Shown here piece by piece: positions 11,171 through 35,613 of a stretch of 64,000 nt of DNA. The notes below the pieces were generated by a model. That model searched no databases. It was not told the origin of the DNA and was given only the letters and a program-made list of their open reading frames with translations. The position numbers were made by a program, and so were the translations under genes. Source of the DNA: a virus. The DNA lies in IMG/VR virus record IMGVR_UViG_3300025703_000001, positions 22,324 through 86,323 of that record. The stretch is one strand, 5' to 3'. Position 1 is the first letter of the stretch. Every line of letters starts with the position of its first letter.

Positions 11171-12235
11171 CTACAGGTAGACGCCCGCTCGGGCGTCGCT
11201 GATCCCACTACCAATCTGCGAATGGCGCTGTGCCTCAAAGAGTTCCGCCAGTGTAGCCTCACCGCGAACGTTACCCTCGCTCCACTGGCTGGCCTCAGAT
11301 GCGGACATGCGCGGCACTTCGATATTCGCGATACAGCGGCCGGGACGCATGATGGCCTCGTGCAGCTTGACAACCGGCGCATTTGTCGTCATCAGGACGA
11401 GAACATTCAGCCCCTGTCCGATCATGCCATCACCAAGATTGAGCAGACGAGAGATGGCCTGTCCAACGTTTTTCTTAGCGTCAGGGGTCAGGAATTCCTC
11501 GGCGTCCTCCACAATGACCAGTCGCCAGCGGTCACCGATCGCCTCGTCCAACAACACCTGCATCAGATAGCCACCACGCATGAACATATCGTCCGCGTCC
11601 ACCACGTAGACCAGATCACACCACGACTTCCACGCATCGGCCAGCGCACGAATAGCGGTTGTCTTTCCAGTGCCAGCGGGACCGTGCAGCAACATGATGC
11701 GCCCAGTCTCAATATTCGCTGGCCTCAGTTCCATCAGGTCAGACAGGGCCTCGCGTGCTTTTGAAGCGTAGTTGCCCTTAATCTCGTCCCACTTCGGCAC
11801 CACCAGTCTGCGGGTCCGAGAATTGGCAGACATGCCACCCCAATACCAGAAATCCATATTGACCGTTCCGTCAGGTGGCTTCTCCAAAAGCGGCAGCGAC
11901 TCCGTAATCTGGTCCAATAGCGCATGGCATTGTTCCCAGCCGTTAGGTCCATCCACCAGCACATTGAGGGACATGCTGTTCCGCAGGGACGTCGCTCGCA
12001 CCCAAGCGTCGTTACCGACCTTCCAGAGTACGTTCTGCTCGTCGTCATTGGCGTCATTCCAGGTACCGACAAGTTCGCCACCCGAGACCTTCATTTCGAC
12101 AGCGGTCGTCGCGGTAGGGTAGCCGCCCCTAACCACCTCATGCGGCGCAGCCATATCGGCCTTGATCTTGTGATAACGACCGAGGACGTGGATGGCACCG
12201 CTGTCCATCGTATATTGCACCGACAAATCGGTCAT
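11171..12235 (-). CDS. AAA ATPase (actinobacterial DUF5925-like)
   Basis: HGPAGTGKT Walker A, IVEDAE Walker B, TTN sensor, RPGR; AGGAG RBS. Confidence 0.9.
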   Translation of the reverse strand: MTDLSVQYTMDSGAIHVLGRYHKIKADMAAPHEVVRGGYPTATTAVEMKVSGGELVGTWNDANDDEQNVLWKVGNDAWVRATSLRNSMSLNVLVDGPNGWEQCHALLDQITESLPLLEKPPDGTVNMDFWYWGGMSANSRTRRLVVPKWDEIKGNYASKAREALSDLMELRPANIETGRIMLLHGPAGTGKTTAIRALADAWKSWCDLVYVVDADDMFMRGGYLMQVLLDEAIGDRWRLVIVEDAEEFLTPDAKKNVGQAISRLLNLGDGMIGQGLNVLVLMTTNAPVVKLHEAIMRPGRCIANIEVPRMSASEASQWSEGNVRGEATLAELFEAQRHSQIGSGISDARAGVYL

Positions 12236-14542: not shown

Positions 14543-14884
14543 TCACGCAGTCCTCCGGTCCACTTCCTTCTGAGTCCACCCGCGGGCCACGGCGGTCCGA
14601 GCGGACTTCAGGGTGTTGTAGTACATGGCGATTTCGGTGTTGGTCGGAATGTGGACCACAATCCAAGGAGTGCCAACATCCTCGACCCGCTCAAAATGCC
14701 AGATTCCGTCAACCGTGTCAGCGGCCCAGCACTCTTTGCGAGTGGCGCCACCAGGGTCGCTCATGTGCCGGAACGTGCCTCGCATAACCTTGTTGGTGAT
14801 TTCGGGAAGCTCGGTCTTGGTCATGGGTATATTTTGCGCCCCAATCAGGTCGTTGTCAATGCCTGTGACCTGCATTTTTGTCAC
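14543..14884 (-). CDS. Hypothetical protein
   Basis: GTGA overlap with ART gene. Confidence 0.55.
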   Translation of the reverse strand: MTKMQVTGIDNDLIGAQNIPMTKTELPEITNKVMRGTFRHMSDPGGATRKECWAADTVDGIWHFERVEDVGTPWIVVHIPTNTEIAMYYNTLKSARTAVARGWTQKEVDRRTA

Positions 14885-15675
14885 TTTTTAGGTGGTAGAA
14901 CGGTGCCGTATACGTCATATACCCCGTTCATGCGTTGTTCCACCCTAGACACGGCCACCCTAGATCCTCGCTCTAGCAACAATTCCCGCTCTATGGGATT
15001 GTTGGAAACGCCCTTCATGGAAACGCCGTTCGTACCTTCTGGCACCAGCAGGTGCATCGTGACCCCACCGATATGGTGTTCGTCACCCACCGTGGTCGAC
15101 ATATAGGCGTTATCCGTGATGACCTTGTGATCCAGGTCTTTCGGGTCGCCAGAAATGGCATCCGTAGGGATATTCCTTGTCACTTCCACATTCTGCCCCA
15201 GCGGTCGCATGGTCTGATCAATGCGCCCGACTTCGGGGTTGCTATCGTCACCAGCGCGCAACGCTACGTTCGTACTGAGAAAGCTGTCGCCAGAATATCG
15301 GTTCAGCGTATTTTGATCTGCCGACGACAACTTAGGAGTGTTCAGATCGTCCATTGACTTGACGGTGCCAGCGCTCTGGGCTTTGTCTATGGCGTTATTG
15401 ACGTACTCCCGGTCTGCGTCCGTAAGCGCCGAGACGTGTTCAGAATCAATGCTAGAGGCACCATGGATGTCAGAGGGTTCACCGTGGGCGTCGTGGGCCG
15501 ACCCACCGCCAGCATCGCGGGGATGAGGCACGTACGGGTGTTCAGCGTCCCAAGTGGCCCAGTCTTTTTCTAGCGGACCCTGTTCGTCCTCTACCACCAT
15601 CTTGGTAACTTCGCCGTTGTCTACAGTGGCACGCAGTCGCCAGGTCCATTCAGTCATGTCGTAATACTCAGACAT
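14881..15675 (-). CDS. VIP2-like (R-S-E) ADP-ribosyltransferase
   Basis: Y....N..LR, VTR, YMSTT, ERELLLERG motifs. Confidence 0.85.
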   Translation of the reverse strand: MSEYYDMTEWTWRLRATVDNGEVTKMVVEDEQGPLEKDWATWDAEHPYVPHPRDAGGGSAHDAHGEPSDIHGASSIDSEHVSALTDADREYVNNAIDKAQSAGTVKSMDDLNTPKLSSADQNTLNRYSGDSFLSTNVALRAGDDSNPEVGRIDQTMRPLGQNVEVTRNIPTDAISGDPKDLDHKVITDNAYMSTTVGDEHHIGGVTMHLLVPEGTNGVSMKGVSNNPIERELLLERGSRVAVSRVEQRMNGVYDVYGTVLPPKK

Positions 15676-16582: not shown

Positions 16583-17234
16583 CTAATGCTTTCTCCTTGT
16601 CTTGTGTCAGCGTCATTACGCCGAGGGTTCATCTTCCAGTGTAGCTTACGCCACCACCACGGTTGGCGGTTCCATGCGTTCACGTAGTTTTGACGGGTGG
16701 CCTCAACAAGTCCATCCCGCGTCGACTTGTGAATGGCGTCCTTATATGCCTGAATCTTTTCGGGGGTATCTAGCCCGAGGTATTCCCATGACGGGAGCGG
16801 AGCACTCATGTCGTAATAGTTCTCTTTTCAGACATTGACTTGCCAAGCACCTAACGCCTCCCGCATTTCAGCCAGAGCCAGCGCCCTCCGACGAAACCGC
16901 CAAATAGGAATTGAATCATACCGTTTGCTGGCATCAAGAAACGATTGGACACGCTGGACCTCCGCTGCACACCATGCCTGAAATACAGGATTGTCTATCA
17001 TAGTTAGATAATTGTCGATCTGCGCCACCGACGCCTAGATGGTGGGGGAACTTCTGTTGGCTCATCAAAATAGTCCAACAGATCAGCGGCGTCTACATAA
17101 CCAGCCATTCTCAGGACCCATCGAACGTCATCCCGGTTGAGGTAGGTGATTCCCTTGTGTCCGATGGAACCTATCACATAGTCTTCAAACAGATCAAGTA
17201 TCTTCGGGTTGATCATGTCGGAATAGTCCTACTT

Positions 17235-17876
17235 TCAAACAAGATCAAATACCCCCTGGCTAAGTCGCTTAACTGCGATTTCGCAATACCTCTCTTCAAT
17301 CTCAATGCCAATACCTCGTCTACCTAGTTTTAACGCCGCTTCCATCGTGGGTCCACTCCCCATATAGGGATCAAGAACGAGACCTGGTGGCACAAGGCCC
17401 AATACCCACATCATCAACGATACGGGCTTTTGTGTTGGATGAACGAAGGACTTCCGTTCAGACGCACGATACGCACCGCTCCAGAGATGACGAAATACCT
17501 GCGTTCGATTGACGCAGTTAGTCCATGCAAATTCAGCTTCAGCGATCCGAAGCTTCATACCGTTAGACGTTACCTTATCCCATGCCAGCCATCCGCTATG
17601 ATCGGGCAGCTGAGATGCGAAACAGTTGCCGCCCCATAGAACCGTAGGTTTACCAAGTGCCAGCAGGTGCGCAGGATTAAAGGGTTCCGCATCGCCATGA
17701 ATCGCCTCATGGCTTTCCGTGGTGGACTCAAATTTAGGGGACTGAGGGTCATAGTCAATCCCGTACGGAGGATCTGACACAATAACGTCAAAACTCAATT
17801 CTGAGATTATTGCTTGGCAGTCGCCGTGGTAGAGCGTAATCAAATCATCTTGGTAATACGGTTTAATCATCGCCAC
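17235..17876 (-). CDS. DNA N6-A/N4-C methyltransferase (beta class)
   Basis: DPPY, HPTQKP, DPYMGSG motifs. Confidence 0.93.
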   Translation of the reverse strand: MAMIKPYYQDDLITLYHGDCQAIISELSFDVIVSDPPYGIDYDPQSPKFESTTESHEAIHGDAEPFNPAHLLALGKPTVLWGGNCFASQLPDHSGWLAWDKVTSNGMKLRIAEAEFAWTNCVNRTQVFRHLWSGAYRASERKSFVHPTQKPVSLMMWVLGLVPPGLVLDPYMGSGPTMEAALKLGRRGIGIEIEERYCEIAVKRLSQGVFDLV

Positions 17877-19093
17877 GCTCCGAAGCCTTTGGTTGACCTA
17901 TGGACATCAATCCAACATACCGCCCGCTAGAATCACGAAGTCTACCACCACACAGTCGACATCGAACCCCCATCTGTTCTGTGTTCATTTGGCAACCCAC
18001 ATCCTTACACCACGGCATGCTGATCAGTCCAAACGTCTGATTAGTTGTCTCGCCTTTAGCACTAGTCTGATTTCATTTGCATCAAGCGCTTTGTCCCATG
18101 TCATCCAAGTCTCCCCACCGTCTGTCGGCATCAGCCCAACTTCTGCAAGGGCGATCTCAACTCGTTCTTTTTCATTTATCACGAAACCACCTCAAGCCAA
18201 TAGACAAGTAGATGCCGCAGCAACGCTCAAACCCACAACAATATCGCACCCTTCCGCTTACATAGATAATACTCGGAACTGATGCCACCCCAATGTCTGA
18301 GGTGGTCCCAGGTCTGCCGTAAACAGCGTATCATGACTGATCGGTGGCATCAATAGCCGCCGAAAGCTGATCGCAACAATGGGCGTCTAGATTGTCTTCA
18401 CGGACGAACCGACCACAGAATGGACACCGCAGGCGTTCGCCACACAATGAGCAAACGGACGATCCGTGCCAATAGCATCCGGACATACACCCCTCAGACA
18501 TCACGGGATCGGAAAAATGCCCTCACACTTGGACCTCAGTTCAAGGTCGGGTGCACTGTTAAGCCACATGGCACAACCGGGAACGTGGCACTCTCCTCCG
18601 ACACCGTCAAGACAGAGGTCGCACAGAATAAGGTTCACATGATTAAGCGTGGGATCGGCGCTTGGTGCTCTACTTGGGGAGTTCCGGTGCCTACCCTCTA
18701 GCCACTCGCCCTCTGACGGCATTCCTTCTCCATCAGTCATCGGTCCACTCTCCAGCATTAACCGGCCACGGGTTCCCGCTTGTAGTACCGACAGGGTAAA
18801 CCCATCGACGCCAATCCGTGCGTCGGATGGCACCGCATTCCCAACAGTACAGCCATGAACCCCCCGAGATAACCCAGCTTTTCGCGTGTCGAGATTGACA
18901 TCGCCGACCCTGCCGACACCGTCCTGCGTCAGTCTCGATCATCCACGGCCAGCCATTGACGACCCATTCGGCATTGTCCTCGCTCAATCCAGCCGTCTTC
19001 ATTCGCCCAACGAGCGTGTGACGTTCGTCCTCAGCACTGATTCGGCGCCACGATTCATCGGAGCTGGTCATGTCCGAATGTGTGTGTATTCAG

Positions 19094-19453
19094 TCACGCC
19101 AGCTTGCGCGCCCGTGCGGCCAGCATTGCTGCAGACAGGGCACACGTTTCGCCGGTCGGACGCGTCCATACCCCGATAGCCTGATCCGTCACGGTAGATC
19201 CCTCCCGCATAAGGTCGGACAGCGTTAGCGGCTTGTCCTCAGCTGGCTTGGCATCCAGTTCCTCGCGCAGCTTTGCGATGGCATCCTGATCCAACATGCG
19301 ATCGATTTCATCTAGCAGCTTGTCCGTCTCAGCCTTAACCTCAGCCGTCTCAGTACGCTGCGGTGAAGGATTTTCCTTCAAGTGTGACTGTTCCGTATCC
19401 GAGGATTGTCTTTGCTGCTTTTTCTGAGTCGGGACCAACGCTTGGGTACTCAT
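19094..19453 (-). CDS. Pup-helix-containing fusion protein (no C-terminal GGE/GGQ)
   Basis: Disordered Q/E/S-rich N-terminus then KAETDKLLDEIDRMLD, resembling Pup ETDDLLDEIDDVLE; AAGGAG RBS. Confidence 0.7.
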   Translation of the reverse strand: MSTQALVPTQKKQQRQSSDTEQSHLKENPSPQRTETAEVKAETDKLLDEIDRMLDQDAIAKLREELDAKPAEDKPLTLSDLMREGSTVTDQAIGVWTRPTGETCALSAAMLAARARKLA

Positions 19454-20108
19454 GCTTCTCCTTCTTAGGTTGAATGGTGAAGTCGACTGTTGGATCATCT
19501 AGCGCAATGATATCAAGCCACTCTGCGATCTTTTCACGTGACCACTGATGGGCGTCGTTAACGTGCGGAATGAGTGCCGTCAGATACCCCGGTGCGGCTT
19601 TGCATTCTGGACACGGACGCTGCACTTTGCCCAGTCCTGGACATATGGACAACAGTTCAGAAACGATTGAATTTGAGCCGCCGATATAGTTGACGTAGTT
19701 GTCGTTGCTATAGTCGAGCCACACTGGGGCCGTCCACTGGATTGGCGATGCAAGCACGTACATGGGTTTACCCGGCGCAAGCGTCAAAGTTCCCCATGGC
19801 GTCGGCGTCGGCGTTGGCGTTGAGTACCACGTATTTACCTGGAGGTCTATGTGTTCACCCTTACACCACTTGACCGCACGCCGAAAATACTGATCGGCCA
19901 GCCCCTTAGGATTTGCCATAAATCCCTCTAGGTCAGAGAGATGAATCGGCTCGTCGTGGCGGCGACCGTGGAGACAGGTAAACCGAACCCTGGTGTACTC
20001 GTTCTTGCGCTGAACCGTCTTCACGTCCCAGCCCTTGGCGTACTTTGCGCGTGTGTGTAAATGGTGCCAGAACTGCTGCTCGCGGTTTTTGAGTTCGGGA
20101 GTTTTCAT
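19350..20108 (-). CDS. Hypothetical protein with CPEC...HxND.H.WSRE.IA.WL domain
   Basis: Motif recognised from phage hypothetical families. Confidence 0.6.
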   Translation of the reverse strand: MKTPELKNREQQFWHHLHTRAKYAKGWDVKTVQRKNEYTRVRFTCLHGRRHDEPIHLSDLEGFMANPKGLADQYFRRAVKWCKGEHIDLQVNTWYSTPTPTPTPWGTLTLAPGKPMYVLASPIQWTAPVWLDYSNDNYVNYIGGSNSIVSELLSICPGLGKVQRPCPECKAAPGYLTALIPHVNDAHQWSREKIAEWLDIIALDDPTVDFTIQPKKEKHEYPSVGPDSEKAAKTILGYGTVTLEGKSFTAAY

Positions 20109-20740
20109 GGCGTAAAGTTGGCGTATTCAGTCATAGTCCATAATCCTGTCGACAGTCTACACATAGCTCGTTACCCGAGATGAACATGGACTCTGATTTC
20201 TGTAGATCACACGATGGGCACACCATTTGATTGTCTGACGAGCGTGTGCCCCTATTCGTGGCGGTGTGTTGATAACACTTCTCTCCCAGTGCAGCAACTG
20301 GCCTGGGGCATGTGGCGTCCCACTTTGCCCAAGCAAATCCGTGGTGATAATTGAGAGGTTCACCACAGGTCGGAGTGTCCGAAATCATGGATATTCCTTC
20401 GCGAACAACGTGGCAGCACCTACTCGGATGCCAATGCAGGTGCACCTACGCATCCCATGGCAAATCCCAGTGTCCGTTGGGGGCCGACCAGTTGCGCCAC
20501 CAGCGTTCCTTGCGAGGTTGTCGCATTATGTACGTGGTGCCACAGCGCGGACACGTCCAGTGATCACCTGTCTGAAACTCAATGGCGGGGGGGAACTGAC
20601 AAACCATCGGACCACAGTTGATCGGATGGCACATACAATCGCACCATCCACCAGACTGGTCGGCACCCTTGTAGCAATTTCCACAGGCGCCCATTTCACA
20701 GGCTTCAGTCAACATGTCCGAATACCGCTACTTTCATCCA

Positions 20741-21007
20741 TCACATCTTCCTGTATGCTCGTTCGCTGGCTGCGATGGCCTGCCGCCGCTCACTCGCGGA
20801 CATTCCGTGGGGCCGACCTTCAACCCTTACTGGAAAAGAGTCTTTCAGCGACCTCTGCTCGTCTTTACAAAAGACCTGACCAGTCATTGAGTGGCCGTAA
20901 GCAAACGGTCCGCCAGCCTGTCCAATGTTCGCCTCAACCGGAAACTGGCAGTGCTCGCATGGCGACTCGTCGCCGTTTGTTGTTGGGGTGGCTGCTGTCT
21001 TGGTCAT
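20741..21007 (-). CDS. Small Cys/His protein, leaderless
   Basis: ATG 7 nt after promoter at 21015-21043. Confidence 0.6.
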   Translation of the reverse strand: MTKTAATPTTNGDESPCEHCQFPVEANIGQAGGPFAYGHSMTGQVFCKDEQRSLKDSFPVRVEGRPHGMSASERRQAIAASERAYRKM

Positions 21008-21014
21008 GGATCTA

Positions 21015-21043
21015 AGTATGTGCCTCTATACACAATATGTCAA
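21015..21043 (-). promoter_or_regulatory. SigA-type promoter TTGACA-N17-CATACT
   Basis: Read directly on minus strand. Confidence 0.8.
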
Positions 21044-21091
21044 CGCCTAAAGTTGCAGGTCAGACGCAAGTTTGAATACGTGCACTTTCCT

Positions 21092-21364
21092 TCACGCCCG
21101 ATGCGGTCCACCCGCATAGACATGACCTTGGGTCCAGCCCTCGTCAGACACCAGTCGGATCTCGCCCAACTCCGCCAGGCGGTCGATGCAGGCCAACATC
21201 TGCCACGTATCGCCCGTGACGCCCTTCATGGCGTTCTCTACGGTAAATGCTCCGGCTGACGCCAAAAGGCCCTTTGTGTTGTCGCGAATCTTGAGGAATA
21301 TCTTCTGCCCATCCTCAGTGAACACCCGCTCGCGCTCATCCGCGTAGCAATATCCACTCATCAT
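21092..21364 (-). CDS. Conserved phage hypothetical protein (GDTWQMLACIDRL.ELGEI)
   Basis: Coupled ORF with recognisable motif. Confidence 0.6.
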   Translation of the reverse strand: MMSGYCYADERERVFTEDGQKIFLKIRDNTKGLLASAGAFTVENAMKGVTGDTWQMLACIDRLAELGEIRLVSDEGWTQGHVYAGGPHRA

Positions 21365-22109
21365 AGACCTCTCCCATCTGCTTCTGGTTCTTGTTCAACG
21401 TGAATCTCAATAGTCGACCATGACCCCGCTGCCTGCTTGACCAGATTGTCAACGACCGAACGATTATCGGTTAGCACGACCACCCTCCACACTGGAAGGT
21501 TGGGGATAGGATCAGGCCACTTGTCTGAGAACATCGTGAAGATAGCGTGACCATTATCGGTCATGATGGTCAGGGTGGTGGCATCGACGCCCACAACGGG
21601 ACACTCATCGCCATTCCACAGGACGTGCTTCAAACCCTTGAATTTCTGTATATCAGCGGCGGATGCCATTACATTTCTCCAGCGCAACGCAGGTGCCGAC
21701 CATCTGCATCAAATACGCAGCACATGAACATTTTCTCGGCGTGTTCCTCGGCAAAACTCAGCGCCGATTCAATCGTCTCAAATCGCTCAGGGAAGTCGGC
21801 CGAGGACATATCAAATGTGTCCAGCCAGCGAACCTCAAACGGGGCAATAGCCACTTCTGGCATCGAATCCCTTTCGTCCGCAGAGAAAATGCTCCGTACG
21901 TTGCTGCCAGTGTTCCTGGGTATCGCTACCCAAAAGAATGGGATGCGCCCACGTCGTTAAGAGGAACAACGCTTCGTGCAGGTCTGCTCGGAGCTTGTAA
22001 ATCTCGTCTACGTTGCCATTCCACGCTTCCAGCGTGACGTTCATGACTTTTGTACTGTCAGACATCGTGTCACCCTTCCTGTGGATAACTTGAAGGAATA
22101 GATGAGCTT

Positions 22110-22400
22110 TCATCCACGGGGGATGACAGAAACCTCTTTGGCGACCTGAATAGCATCGTCAACGGCAGCAAACGCCTCGTTTGCCGTGCGAGCGTTGGTG
22201 TCGTTCCATATAAATAGCGAGTTGCCGTATCTCAACGTCACGACGCTGGACACGTACTGAGTGGCACGCTGAATCGCTGGATTCTGCGTCTGGGAACAGA
22301 ACGCGCCACGGCACCCCATCAGGGCTTCTTCAAGACACGCCGCTCTCCCATTCTGGGCAGGTGGTGCAGGCATGTCCAGCGTCCGCAGAACTGAATCCAC
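22110..22400 (-). CDS. Hypothetical protein (WND...RT..E motif, DUF6197-like)
   Basis: CLEEAL...WNDTNARTANE. Confidence 0.5.
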   Translation of the reverse strand: MDSVLRTLDMPAPPAQNGRAACLEEALMGCRGAFCSQTQNPAIQRATQYVSSVVTLRYGNSLFIWNDTNARTANEAFAAVDDAIQVAKEVSVIPRG

Positions 22401-22619
22401 GGACCGCGCTCAGGATCGTCACAGTCTTCTCGCTCGCATTTCATCGTTCAACCCCCTCTTGGCTCGCCGTATCTCGGCTGCTCTGCTCAACGCGTCCCGG
22501 CAGTGACCGAGCCAATACATGACCGTTTCGGCGTCGGTGGCGAAATCTTCTCGCCTGTCGCCGGATGCCGCGTCGAACATGGGGAGATTGAAACACATAC
22601 GGACCGGCAATGTCAAGGG

Positions 22620-22648
22620 TTGCGCTGAAATAATGTTTCATGTATGGT
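22620..22648 (+). promoter_or_regulatory. Rightward promoter TTGCGC-N17-TATGGT with TGAAA-N5-TTTCA palindrome in spacer
   Basis: Read directly, 8 nt upstream of the Lsr2 ATG at the strand-switch point. Confidence 0.65.
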
Positions 22649-22656
22649 CACCTGCG

Positions 22657-23109
22657 ATGACCTCCGTTGCCGATTTTCTGCCAGATTTCGCAAACGACAC
22701 CACGATCAGAGAAACTGAGGCAACCTATAAACGCCTGATAGACCTGCTGAGAGAGGCACACCGGCAATCAATGGCGCGGATCGTGGCCACGCGGGACGGG
22801 ACCGTGGCGACGACCACACGCAATACCACGAATACCGGTCTTCACACGCCCACGGTCAAGAACTGGGCACTGCGCACCGGCGTGATTTTACCACCAAGCG
22901 GACGGGTTACGAAGGCCATTAAAGAGCAGTACCGAGCGGCACACGCTGAGACGCCCTCAAATAGCGTAGAATCTAATGTGGCACAATCCCCCGAGTTGGA
23001 TGTTTCGTTGCCTCTCGTGCGATCCTGGGCCGCCTCAGAGGGTCTGGCCGTAGGTTCTCGTGGGCGTATCCACCCTGATATTGTAGCGGCCTACTTGGAG
23101 GCACACTGA
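22657..23109 (+). CDS. lsr2: Lsr2-like protein with two DNA-binding domains
   Basis: VKNWA..G...SGRV....EQY.AAH and VRSWA..EG..VGSRGRI...IVAAY.EAH. Confidence 0.85.
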   Translation: MTSVADFLPDFANDTTIRETEATYKRLIDLLREAHRQSMARIVATRDGTVATTTRNTTNTGLHTPTVKNWALRTGVILPPSGRVTKAIKEQYRAAHAETPSNSVESNVAQSPELDVSLPLVRSWAASEGLAVGSRGRIHPDIVAAYLEAH

Positions 23110-33182: not shown

Positions 33183-33809
33183 ATGGCACGACACGGACCC
33201 GATAAGGACATATGTGGCGCCCAGCGTGCCAACCAGCCGGAGGGTGTCGTTTGCCAGAACGTCGCAGGTGAACGTACTGATCACCTCGGAATCGGCAGGT
33301 GCTACCGTCATGGTGGATCTACCGAATCGCACAACAAGGCGGCGCGGGTGGAAATCTTAGACCGTGATGCCCGCAAGTTGTTGGCGATAGAAGGCTTTGA
33401 GCCGATCGTTGATCCGTTCACCGAACTGTCTGAGCTGGCTGGTGAGGTCAAGAAGCTCAAGAATGTGTTGCGGGACAAGGTCGAGGAACTGACCAACCTG
33501 AAGGACGTTGGTGGCAAGAACGTCGCCACTCAGATCGACGTGCTGTTTCAAGCGTACGAACGGTCGATTGATCGCTGCGAGCGCATCCTGATGGGTATGG
33601 CGAGACTGGATCTTGAGGACCGCATCGCTCGGCTGCATGCCCGCATTGACTCAGACACCGCCGACCAGATCGTTAGCGCCATGACCGCATCGCTTGAAGG
33701 CGTGGACATTTCCGACGCTGTTCGTGAGGCGATTATCCTTGACTTTGGAACCCGACTTTCAGGTGGTCAGCAACCTGGTCGCCAGCAAGCTGTCGGCGCA
33801 ATCGGTTAG
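33183..33809 (+). CDS. terS: Terminase small subunit (probable)
   Basis: CGA...C...GRC.RHGG motif, directly upstream of terL. Confidence 0.7.
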   Translation: MARHGPDKDICGAQRANQPEGVVCQNVAGERTDHLGIGRCYRHGGSTESHNKAARVEILDRDARKLLAIEGFEPIVDPFTELSELAGEVKKLKNVLRDKVEELTNLKDVGGKNVATQIDVLFQAYERSIDRCERILMGMARLDLEDRIARLHARIDSDTADQIVSAMTASLEGVDISDAVREAIILDFGTRLSGGQQPGRQQAVGAIG

Positions 33810-35613
33810 AACTGACGACTACGCCACTCCTGGTGAACTTGCACTTGCGCTAGATCCGACCACGGTTCAGACTCCGGCGCTTGACATCATCGACGGCGCA
33901 TTAGTCGACGTCGAGAAGGCGCTAGACGCCACACTGAAACGCCAACGCCTGTTTGCCAAGTATCGCAACGCTGGCATGAACGAGTTTGAGGCCCGCGATT
34001 CCGCTGAGGCCGAAGTTCCGACGATTGGCACTGATCGCATGATCGTGTCGATGCCTCCGCAGGAGGGCAAGTCCGAGCGGTGCTCGCACTATGGCGTGCT
34101 GTGGATGCTGCGGCGTCATCCCGAGATGCGCTGCGCGATCGTTTCCTACGAAGAACGCATTGCACAGAACATGTCGTCAAAGCTCCGTAACGATCTGCTG
34201 ACGTTCGATGGCGCCGAGGGCAACATCGACCTCGGCATTGAGCTACGACGTGGCAACCGTGCCGTTGGATCGTGGTCGCTTGAAGGCGAGCGCGGTTCGA
34301 TTTACGCCATTGGTATCGGTGGCGCCCTGACGGGAAGGCCAGTTGATTTATTGGTCGTGGACGACCCCGTCAAAGACTACAAAGCTGCCGACAGCTCACT
34401 GCAATCCGACCAAGCGTGGATGTGGTGGATGTCGGTCGCTCGTGCGCGGTTGGCACCTGGCGCGCCGGTCATCGTGATCCTGACTCGTTGGCATGAAGCC
34501 GACATGGCCGGACGGTTGATCCAGAAGCAGCGCGAAGACGAGGCGTCAGAGCAGCAGTACTTCGACCGTTGGCGCGTTATTAACATCTCAGCTCAGGCCG
34601 AGTTTGACCCAGCGACACAGACCGATCCGCTTGGCCGACAGCCCGGCGAGTTCATGGACTCGGCTCGTGGTCGCACACGGGCGCAGTGGGAAGCGACCAA
34701 GGCATCACAGATCCCGCGCGTGTGGTCGGCGTTGTACCAGGGCAAGCCGTCGCCTGACAGTGGGGACGTGTTCCACCGTAACTGGTGGATGCGATTCGGT
34801 ACGCCGATCTGGAACCAGAATCCCGACGAGACGTTTACTGCGCATGATTGCACTGAGATCATACAGAGCTGGGATCTTGCTTTCAAAGATAACAACACGT
34901 CTGACTACGTTGTCGGCCAGGTCTGGGCGCGACGCGGTGCGAACACCTACCTGCTCGATCAGGTGCATGCACGACTGAGCTTTACCGATACCGTCGCCGC
35001 GATTCGTCGCATGTCTGAGCGTTGGCCGCAAGCAATCGTCAAGCTGATTGAGGACAAGGCGAACGGTCCAGCGGTGATCAATGCGCTACGATCTGAGGTC
35101 GGCGGCATCATTCCCGTTCAGGTCAAGGATTCTAAGAGCGCGCGTGCTGCTGCTGTGTCGCCATTCATTGAGTCCAACAACGTGTTCCTGCCGTCAACAG
35201 AGATAGCGCTGTATGACGTGGAAGCGTTTATCGAGGAAACGACTCAGTTCCCGAACGCTGCGCACGACGACCAAGTCGACGCCATGACGCAGGCGCTCAA
35301 TCGGTTTTACTTGCAAGGTTCCGGAGCGAAGGATTGGCTTGAGTCGCTTGCGCCGACCCATGACTGTGGCCAGCCGAACAGTAAGGGATCGACGCGCTGT
35401 AGTAAGTGCGGCGAGGAACTGAAGCCTGACGAGACGGTTGATGCTGAGCCTGAAGAGTTCTCGCTGACTAGCGGTATAAATGACCCGACCAAACCTAAGC
35501 CACCCGACGAACTGACTGGCTTCAACAAAACCGTGTCGGACGCCATCGCACAATACGGCCCGTCCGGTTCTGGCGGTTTCGATCCTTTCGCACGCAAGTC
35601 ATGGCAACGATAA
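33694..35613 (+). CDS. terL: Terminase large subunit (start uncertain)
   Basis: MPPQEGKS, DDPVK, TRWH..D, SWDLAFK, IEDKANG, HDDQVDA. Confidence 0.95.
   Translation: MKAWTFPTLFVRRLSLTLEPDFQVVSNLVASKLSAQSVRTDDYATPGELALALDPTTVQTPALDIIDGALVDVEKALDATLKRQRLFAKYRNAGMNEFEARDSAEAEVPTIGTDRMIVSMPPQEGKSERCSHYGVLWMLRRHPEMRCAIVSYEERIAQNMSSKLRNDLLTFDGAEGNIDLGIELRRGNRAVGSWSLEGERGSIYAIGIGGALTGRPVDLLVVDDPVKDYKAADSSLQSDQAWMWWMSVARARLAPGAPVIVILTRWHEADMAGRLIQKQREDEASEQQYFDRWRVINISAQAEFDPATQTDPLGRQPGEFMDSARGRTRAQWEATKASQIPRVWSALYQGKPSPDSGDVFHRNWWMRFGTPIWNQNPDETFTAHDCTEIIQSWDLAFKDNNTSDYVVGQVWARRGANTYLLDQVHARLSFTDTVAAIRRMSERWPQAIVKLIEDKANGPAVINALRSEVGGIIPVQVKDSKSARAAAVSPFIESNNVFLPSTEIALYDVEAFIEETTQFPNAAHDDQVDAMTQALNRFYLQGSGAKDWLESLAPTHDCGQPNSKGSTRCSKCGEELKPDETVDAEPEEFSLTSGINDPTKPKPPDELTGFNKTVSDAIAQYGPSGSGGFDPFARKSWQR

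Follow-up and report, generated by a model that had tools for sequence, protein, structure and literature searches.

To our knowledge, and within the literature searched, the only known use of Pup is as a tag attached post-translationally by a ligase. According to the available parts of PMC8755798, residues 21–51 of Pup form a single long helix that lies antiparallel on the coiled coil of the unfoldase Mpa, and the disordered segment at the N-terminus is directed towards the pore, into which it threads. The same source describes that PafA and Dop bind a pair of orthogonal helices within Pup's C-terminal half, that conjugation occurs via the C-terminal glutamate, and that Mpa-20S recruits and degrades linear fusions in which Pup precedes DHFR; linear fusions of this kind are found there solely as laboratory tools (PMC8755798). 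Here a virus gene is described that encodes a Pup-like fusion protein. It is located on a stretch of 64,000 nucleotides (nt), called the window, which comprises bases 22324–86323 of the 86,323-bp IMG/VR virus record IMGVR_UViG_3300025703_000001, a record with direct terminal repeats. The gene product, P0001, combines a Pup-derived N-terminal half with a C-terminal domain that is called B, and the upstream gene is called A.

Cellular Pup (PF05639, TIGR03687; 3m9d_G, 7px9_G) and P0001 have in common a disordered, polar N-terminus of about 35–45 residues, which is followed by a helix of the type E.TD.LLDEID..L. In contrast to cellular Pup, P0001 lacks GGQ/GGE and most of the ligase-binding C-terminal part, a folded domain of 64 residues replaces the last about 12 residues, and the length is 119 amino acids (aa) versus about 64. 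Furthermore, P0001 is encoded by a phage that has no dop or pafA match, and its scores are below both curated cut-offs. Striebel et al. 2010 is reportedly the source cited for linear Pup-substrate fusions. Laboratory fusions such as Pup-DHFR, as described in the available parts of PMC8755798, have the same architecture as P0001, i.e., an N-terminal Pup that is peptide-bonded to a folded protein, and they are degraded by Mpa-20S without a ligase. P0001 differs from them in that it is natural, that it contains only about the first 52 Pup-equivalent positions, and that the domain joined to Pup represents one half of a fold built from two chains.

Homology of the N-terminal half to Pup

P0001 matched the Pfam profile of Pup with an E-value of 7.6e-5 and 24 bits, and residues 10–58 were aligned to profile positions 6–56 of 69. 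Twelve of 19 close family members also matched this profile individually at E<=0.01. The family profile was compared with the sequences of the Protein Data Bank (PDB), and 10 matches were obtained at E<=1. The top four were all Pup (3m9d_G, 6.9e-4; 7px9_G, 7.9e-4; 3m91_B, 1.5e-3; 9cku_H, 0.016), and the next match was about three-fold weaker (E 0.054 vs 0.016). The match covered chain residues 16–58 of 7px9_G, and in the PDB alignment printed by the tool ..eetdklLdeiDklLdqda.. was placed against ..EETDDLLDEIDDVLEENA.. of the family. A profile comparison with Pup had been proposed in an earlier note on this DNA, which was made from the sequence alone. Using hhalign, the 32-member family profile was found to match four phage Pup-GGE genes (described below) with 96.7% and an E-value of 3.6e-10 over 28 columns. 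P0001 residues 30–58 were placed on Pup positions 25–52 of 65, and no alignment was obtained past that.

A structure prediction with AlphaFold2 (AF2) and the family alignment gave values of the predicted local distance difference test (pLDDT) below 50 at residues 1–4 and 12–28, and no secondary structure before residue 33. A helix was predicted from residue 33 to 53 (pLDDT about 91), and further helices at 56–68, 78–88, and 105–115. The C-terminus of P0001 reads ..ARARKLA and contains neither GGE nor GGQ. Also in the 32 aligned relatives a GG[QE] end was not present in any case, and all of them finish with ..RG-x(1-5). Thus, among the features that characterize Pup, the disordered N-terminus followed by the Mpa/ARC-binding helix was found in P0001, and a score above the cut-off, GGQ/GGE, and the second C-terminal helix were not.

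These comparisons indicate that residues 33–54 are homologous to the Mpa/ARC-binding helix of Pup and that the likeness goes beyond chance. The view of the earlier note that the N-terminal half is Pup-derived, spanning the Mpa/ARC-binding stretch, was therefore supported by the Pfam, PDB, and hhalign matches. Judged from the functions that the available parts of PMC8755798 assign to the parts of Pup, P0001 appears to retain the unfoldase parts and to lack the ligase parts. Because GGQ/GGE and most of the part gripped by the ligase and the depupylase are missing, P0001 is predicted to be unable to be conjugated to other proteins, as had been proposed, and it should need no ligase.

Reading frame of the fusion gene

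The open reading frame (ORF) has 18 homologues of 93–122 aa that are 50–68% identical to P0001, plus one that is 87% identical over 39% of the query. The start (M-S-S-Q-A-L-V-P..) and the end (..ARARGLA) of the relatives are common with P0001, and therefore its frame and start are fixed. A longer ORF from 19498 and a 95-aa gene call with a later TTG start (P0002) were considered as well; both are unlikely, since the relatives begin at the methionine of P0001. The polar N-terminus, the stretch EVKAETDKLLDEIDRMLD, the C-terminal part (LSDLMREG..QAIG..TCALSAA), and the strong ribosome-binding site AAGGAG are all present exactly as the earlier note had read them.

Among the cultured phages of INPHARED, no DNA match to window positions 17000–22000 was found, and a tblastn search with P0001 gave nothing at E<=0.1, a search in which the low-complexity filter of BLAST may hide short acidic matches. 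A pattern from the family alignment (A1) had 48 matches in genome contigs, none of which was a relative. PHROGs had no family for P0001 or its neighbours, with the exception of a DNA methylase at 17235–17876, and the Protein Atlas yielded no usable match for P0001.

Conservation of the Pup part

When the last 64 residues of P0001 were used for an exhaustive profile search, 305 representatives of the B family were obtained at E<=1e-3; 166 family proteins were stored, and sequences were inspected among these. Thirty-five of the stored proteins, all with at least 93 aa, have a motif of the type [ST]-D-x-L-L-D-E-I-D-x-x-L ahead of the domain. The motif was not found in the remaining 131, not even in part. 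In the full-length motif carriers (n = 32) the four Leu/Ile positions are kept in 29–32 and the acidic positions in 24–29 proteins. L46, L47, I50, D51, and L54 of the P0001 helix are invariant or nearly so, and the conserved pattern T/S-D-x-L-L-D-E/D-I-D comprises acidic as well as hydrophobic positions. The LLDEID helix, on the conservation of which the earlier note had made its proposal depend, is therefore kept in all 35 proteins.

The median distance of the motif from Met1 is 37 residues (between 30 and 47 in 30 of the 32 cases), and in the four phage Pup-GGE proteins it is 36, 37, 42, and 48. The stretch before the motif is rich in E/S/T/K/A in the 32 relatives and almost without aromatic residues. 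Most of the 35 Pup-bearing members are less than 50% identical to one another. In a tree that was built from the C-terminal domain only, the Pup-bearing proteins cluster, with 6 label changes versus 30.2 in shuffles, and none of 500 shuffles was as low. This tree contained 126 rows, after 39 rows without the exact string REG and P0002 had been dropped; it is based on few columns, and most forks are unresolved. The result fits an acquisition of the Pup part once or a few times (the tree allows one to six events), after which it would have been kept while the sequences diverged to below 50% identity.

The B domain and the upstream gene A

Among the 150 representatives listed, the B match ends at most nine residues from the C-terminus. 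The consensus of the family is Y-T-L-A-D-A-I-R-E-G-S-x-V-T-x-Q..G.W..G..C-A-L-S-A-A..A-A-K-A-R-G, it closes its protein, and the elements R-E-G, C-A-L, and A-R that mark membership were found. Most members have 68–80 aa and only a short N-terminal helix. For the B part of P0001 alone, AF2 gave a pLDDT of 94.7 and a predicted template modelling score of 0.77.

The upstream gene carries a C-terminal module, the A module, with the consensus ..L-P-G-L..V-x-C-P..[I/V]-x-H-L-N-D-x-H-x-W-[ST]-R-E-x-I-A-D-W-L-[ED]-x-L-D-[VI]-D-L.., which lies at residues ~150–215 of the 252-aa protein A of the window. Of 28 distinct loci, 27 have the A-module gene next to the B gene; it is located upstream of B in 26 of them and downstream in L016. 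The contig of L028 breaks off about 100 nt ahead of the small gene. The 28 loci comprise 2 from IMG/VR and 26 from metagenomes, after L010 (same contig as L004) and L033 (identical to L032) had been dropped. The phage genome studied here has exactly one A module and one B domain (E 3.3e-23 for B in the own genome), and the two are adjacent. Its protein A is 36% identical over 227 aa to the product of the upstream gene of locus L006.

A profile search with the A module revealed 53 proteins of 42–161 aa. In two of 17 inspected proteins, P0207 (129 aa) and P0219 (115 aa), a B-like half comes first and the A module last, and hhalign placed the B profile on their N-termini with 94.5% (E 8.3e-8) and 95.3% (E 2.1e-8), respectively. 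Because these single chains carry both parts, the A and B genes encode two halves of what is one chain elsewhere. A complex prediction with the A module and B gave an ipSAE of 0.59 (runs 0.61, 0.58, and 0.59), whereas the best of three controls reached 0.00; the runs shared at least 87% of the contacts with a partner pLDDT of at least 72. Of 80 solved complexes, 58 reach the mark for ipSAE, as do 2 of 110 mismatched pairs; only 7 of the 80, but both passing mismatches, reach it with a value of 0.60 or less. The prior for an A–B complex was high in view of the synteny and the single-chain forms, and the partner of B is probably the phage's own protein A and not a host protein.

The earlier note had viewed the C-terminal domain as a free binding module for a host target. 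This view was rejected, since the domain is instead the small half of a two-gene split domain, the other half of which ends the upstream phage gene. It had also been proposed that P0001 is a non-conjugatable adaptor that drags a host target. The absence of GGQ/GGE agrees with the first part of this proposal; however, because B is half of a split domain, the Pup helix is tied first to a phage protein, and any host target would sit on A.

No Pfam or PHROG family was found for protein A, and a search with its N-terminal 150 aa returned only itself. In the Protein Atlas, protein A had structural rows only, with a TM score by query of at most 0.45, and Pfam searches with 10 of 27 A proteins gave two sub-threshold rows only. 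A Foldseek search of the PDB with the whole P0001 model gave nothing significant (best E 2.9), and a wide fold search with VIA had a best Z of 3.7 and only long-helix matches. The best Foldseek match of the B domain alone was 3ol4_B (E 2.9, TMq 0.49), which does not show that the fold is new. 3ol4 is an orthologue of Rv0543c. The A module of locus L008 (2–856(+)) had at residues 111–162 a weak, non-significant Pfam match to Rv2175c_C (E 0.0021, below the cut-off); Rv2175c_C and Rv0543c are small mycobacterial proteins of unknown function. P0001 had no match to DUF6197 or DUF6956 at E<=10. The single-chain P0207 matched DUF6956 with E 0.0073 and DUF6197 with E 0.04, and all its Pfam matches, including these two, were below the cut-off; the single-chain proteins P0207 and P0219, with both halves in one chain, are weakly like these two families.

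The A gene of the window extends 104 nt into the fusion gene (19350–19453). The overlap is 4 nt in L006 (1353–1356), and in L007 the stop-to-stop frame that holds A extends 128 nt into the fusion gene (245–372). Because the overlap differs between these three loci, the 34-residue tail of the window protein A is probably incidental, and it is not conserved. Tandem genes with the ..W[ST]RE.IADWL.. module were observed before a single B gene in L009 (two) and L020 (three).

A plain A/B pair is present in the cultured Streptomyces phage Phredrick, where gp106 and gp107 overlap by 14 nt (L046, 69831–70965). The pair shares with P0001 the B domain (..TLADAIR.GS.V..Q..G.W..G..CAL.AA...A..RG), which stands beside a ..LND.H.WTRE.IADWL.. 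gene; in contrast to P0001, the plain B protein has only ~70 aa, is without a Pup-like N-terminus, and both genes are annotated as hypothetical. In Streptomyces phages of ~130 kb the plain pair lies between the gene of a Ro-like RNA-binding protein and a tRNA gene. In Rhodococcus phage Trina (L047) the gene that follows the A-module gene is not B-like.

The mini-Pup and Pup genes of other phages

The GGE-ended mini-ORF that the earlier note had described does exist in the window; this mini-Pup of 47 aa directly follows a glucosaminidase-domain gene (59202–59849). A DNA pattern from its C-terminus hit only two viral loci, in both cases inside an ORF unrelated to it.

A DNA pattern for T-D-x-L-L-D-E-I-D matched seven IMG/VR contigs (L034–L040), each of which has a full-length Pup ending with GGE, with four distinct sequences in total. 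The Pup of L036 (4340–4549(-)) scored 28.6 bits, above the Pfam cut-off, and adjoins TerS, TerL, portal, and HNH genes, and that of L038 (6053–6247(+)) lies between the genes of ribonucleotide reductase, RecA, and ThyX. Because full-length Pup-GGE genes are situated on phage contigs, phage-borne Pups are real. A tblastn search of INPHARED with the L038 Pup gave no cultured phage at E<=0.01, and again the low-complexity filter may hide short acidic matches. Like P0001, these Pups are phage-encoded, Pup-derived, and have the same helix motif, but they are complete and have a ligation-ready GGE end.

The earlier note had suggested that the mini-Pup and the fusion protein form an early/late two-part system. 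Comparison with other phages did not lend support to this idea: a B-family gene was found in none of five phage records with a Pup-GGE gene (five of the seven loci were searched), and a Pup in neither of two records with the plain A/B module. The positive controls of these searches on the own genome worked. The proposed system thus stands on this one genome, and any link between the mini-Pup and the fusion protein is hypothetical.

In genome contigs, a DNA pattern for T-D-K-L-L-D-E-I-D, which is K-specific, matched four loci, three of which are chance matches in unrelated frames. The fourth (L044, 6052–6294(+)) lies on a 546-kb contig of a Candidatus Saccharibacteria metagenome-assembled genome. 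This ORF of 80 aa has a polar N-terminus followed by ..SETDKLLDEIDAILDE.., lacks GGQ/GGE, and ends with ..EPDCTDCH; its surroundings look chromosomal, and a methyltransferase-like ORF is located upstream. Because Saccharibacteria live on Actinobacteria, the ORF may encode another non-conjugatable Pup mimic.

Genome context and probable host

The virus DNA is present in two peat-metagenome runs, which may be its source; no RNA run was listed as containing it. The genes at 1–22000 of the window are directed leftward, and the structural genes rightward. The terminase large subunit TerL (33694–35613) is closest to phages of Arthrobacter, Glutamicibacter, and Brevibacterium (44–47%), an Lsr2 DNA-binding domain is encoded at 22519–23109(+), and all 28 records of cultured phages with an A module belong to Streptomyces (26) or Rhodococcus (2). 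Based on these three observations the host is likely actinobacterial.

In the 86-kb phage no match to the Pup-ligase family was obtained (dop/pafA), and its sole AAA protein (11171–12235) is a DUF5925 protein for which no Mpa-type domains were reported. The context of cellular Pup genes (dop, pafA, arc/mpa, prcAB) was thus not found in the phage genome. A promoter/terminator scan of 18400–22600 gave counts no higher than chance. The early arm contains, in addition to the AAA ATPase gene on the minus strand and the Lsr2-domain gene, an ADP-ribosyltransferase gene (ADPrib_exo_Tox, 14881–15675(-)), and the methylase mentioned above is an N6/N4 DNA methylase that is also encoded there on the minus strand. 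The positions of the main features are summarized in Table 1.

Table 1. Positions in the window of the fusion gene, its parts, and related features
Feature	Position	Strand	Evidence
Pup-helix/B-domain fusion gene, protein P0001, 119 aa	19094..19453 (incl. stop codon)	-	ORF and 18 homologues
Ribosome-binding site AAGGAG	19458..19463	-	4 nt before ATG, read directly
Polar, predicted disordered segment, residues 1–32, counterpart of the Pup N-terminal threading segment	19358..19453	-	AF2 and relatives
Helix, residues 33–54, homologous by profile to the Pup Mpa/ARC-binding helix (..AEVKAETDKLLDEIDRML)	19292..19357	-	Profile matches, AF2, conserved residues
B domain, residues 56–119, small half of the split phage domain, at the very C-terminus	19097..19288	-	Profile family, AF2, single-chain proteins
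Upstream gene A, 252 aa, probable partner; its last 104 nt coincide with the first part of the fusion gene	19350..20108	-	ORF, synteny
C-terminal A module (..CPGLGKVQRPCPECK..HVNDAHQWSREKIAEWLD..), other half of the split domain	19449..19724	-	Alignment A3
47-aa mini-Pup ending with GGE	59863..60006	+	E 5.3e-4; Pfam Pup E 0.0036, below cut-off

Discussion

The reading that we favour, tentatively and at slightly less than even chances, is that P0001 acts as a Pup degron or dock that is encoded in the gene itself, needs no ligase, and connects the A/B pair with the host unfoldase. P0001 would be a natural linear fusion in which the threading segment and the helix of Pup (residues 1–54) are peptide-bonded to B (residues 56–119), the small subunit of the A/B module. 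Early in the infection of an actinobacterial host, B would fold together with the C-terminal module of A, the Pup helix would dock antiparallel on the coiled coil of the host unfoldase Mpa/ARC, and the free N-terminal segment of P0001 would enter the pore. The ATPase would then pull B, and the A/B pair, together with anything bound to the variable N-terminal part of A, would be unfolded, dismantled, or fed to the proteasome. What was observed is that the helix region is homologous to that of Pup, that a conjugation end is lacking, that the protein is conserved, and that it shares a split domain with the product of the neighbour gene; from these we infer the binding to Mpa/ARC, the threading, and the outcome. 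At the unfoldase, the outcome could be a timed self-removal of an early protein, the release of A, or the delivery of a host protein that is bound to A. For the last case it can be envisaged that P0001 is part of a virus-encoded, ligase-free targeted degrader, in which the fast-evolving N-terminus of A captures a host protein, e.g., a defence factor, and the Pup degron on B feeds the assembly to the Mpa/ARC-proteasome. This version is regarded as unlikely.

Several points count against an engagement of the unfoldase by P0001. The observations would agree with stalling as well as with degradation, and the score of the A–B complex led to a verdict of weak support only. The A/B domain had no Pfam, PHROG, or fold match that would indicate its function. 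The Pfam Pup score is under the curated cut-off (24 vs 27 bits), and TIGR03687, the NCBIfam model of the Pup C-terminus, was matched at positions 4–20 of 33 only, with E 0.012 and 15.6 vs 41.45 bits. With respect to Mpa/ARC, PafA, and the 20S proteasome of the host, the host is known only as likely actinobacterial, from a peat metagenome. Lastly, the 131 of 166 stored B-family proteins without a Pup part include the Phredrick pair, and therefore the basic function of the module does not need Mpa. Streptomyces, the host genus of Phredrick, has a Pup system.

It is also conceivable, but rather improbable, that P0001 blocks the unfoldase. The helix would dock and the N-terminus would enter the pore, but B, locked by A, would resist unfolding. 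The ATPase would be stalled or its coiled coils taken up, and this would allow pupylated proteins, possibly phage proteins bearing a tag from the host, to escape degradation. The evidence for Pup homology is the same for both views, and a compact B with a confidently predicted fold, which is probably clamped by a second chain, would suit a blocker well. However, a stand-alone helix peptide would be enough to compete, and the phage already has the mini-Pup; nevertheless, the fusion to B was kept among proteins with less than 50% identity. The free N-terminus of ~37 residues was preserved as well, although it would be dispensable if P0001 only competed for the coiled coil. Engagement as a degron or dock is favoured over pure blocking because both the fusion to B and a free N-terminus of Pup-like length were kept, and a mere competitor needs neither. 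A decoy for PafA or Dop, in which the helix and the 'DQDAI..L' stretch would occupy the Pup-binding groove without a C-terminal glutamate and thus inhibit pupylation or depupylation, would make use of the two helices of the C-terminal half of Pup that PafA and Dop bind according to the available parts of PMC8755798. The Pfam match indeed extends to profile position 56 of 69, the PDB alignments extend into the stretch after the helix, and AF2 breaks the helix at 54–55 and adds the second helix at 56–68. Yet the second-helix stretch is absent in 5 of 32 aligned members (P0151, P0153, P0165, P0137, and P0071), in which the first helix is followed by a Pro/Glu-rich linker of 6–11 residues that leads straight into B. 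In addition, the hhalign alignment stops at Pup position 52, TIGR03687 matches only the early positions given above, and the conserved region lies before and within the first helix, i.e., in the Mpa-binding part. Because the second-helix stretch was lost in these five members and was not aligned by hhalign, a decoy function is very unlikely.

A link to the Pup system might also be missing altogether; the helix would then serve for oligomerisation or partner binding, be Pup-like by descent or by convergence, and act only inside the A/B complex. Plain B proteins likewise have a short N-terminal helix before the domain, and the Pfam score below the cut-off and a host that is only presumed to be actinobacterial would be compatible with this view. 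On the other hand, the match is specific to Pup, with the next PDB match about three-fold weaker, conservation extends to acidic positions in addition to the hydrophobic ones (T/S-D-x-L-L-D-E/D-I-D), a long disordered N-terminus of Pup-like length was kept, and none of the 131 stored proteins without the motif has it even in part. Such a specific match to Pup is difficult to reconcile with the absence of any Pup link, which seems clearly unlikely, although a little less so than the decoy. It would have to be considered, too, whether P0001 is a real gene with a correctly called frame, since 104 nt of its ORF overlap the upstream ORF and the gene caller picked the later TTG start. An erroneous call appears already contradicted by conservation: full-length homologues with 50–68% identity have the same start and end. 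The strong ribosome-binding site and the confident structure prediction likewise speak against it, and it is extremely improbable.

A literature search, from which most subscription journals were outside, found no paper on a phage-encoded Pup, a Pup mimic, or a Pup/B fusion. A 2026 review, in its available parts, treats an interplay between phages and the Pup-proteasome system as hypothetical and untested (PMC13696103). What appears to be new is the use of the unfoldase-binding module of Pup as a gene-encoded N-terminal domain, in a family of 35 stored phage proteins. If the proposed engagement or block is true, it would be a ligase-independent viral route into, or block of, the actinobacterial proteasome pathway. 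Eukaryotic viruses use adaptors to ubiquitin ligases. The concept that a virus couples proteins to host proteolysis is shared with these adaptors; the machinery differs, and P0001 copies the degradation signal in a gene. If the targeted-degrader version is true, it would be a bacterial counterpart of the viral ubiquitin-ligase adaptors or of PROTAC-type degraders, and P0001 would be the first natural protein known with Pup as a built-in, not ligated, signal. A further outcome of the analysis is the definition of a two-gene split domain that is widespread in actinobacteriophages, lacks annotation, and occurs in cultured, laboratory-tractable Streptomyces phages. The fusion family, with a protein of only 119 aa and Mpa/ARC as a known partner candidate, makes the interplay of phages with the Pup-proteasome system directly testable.

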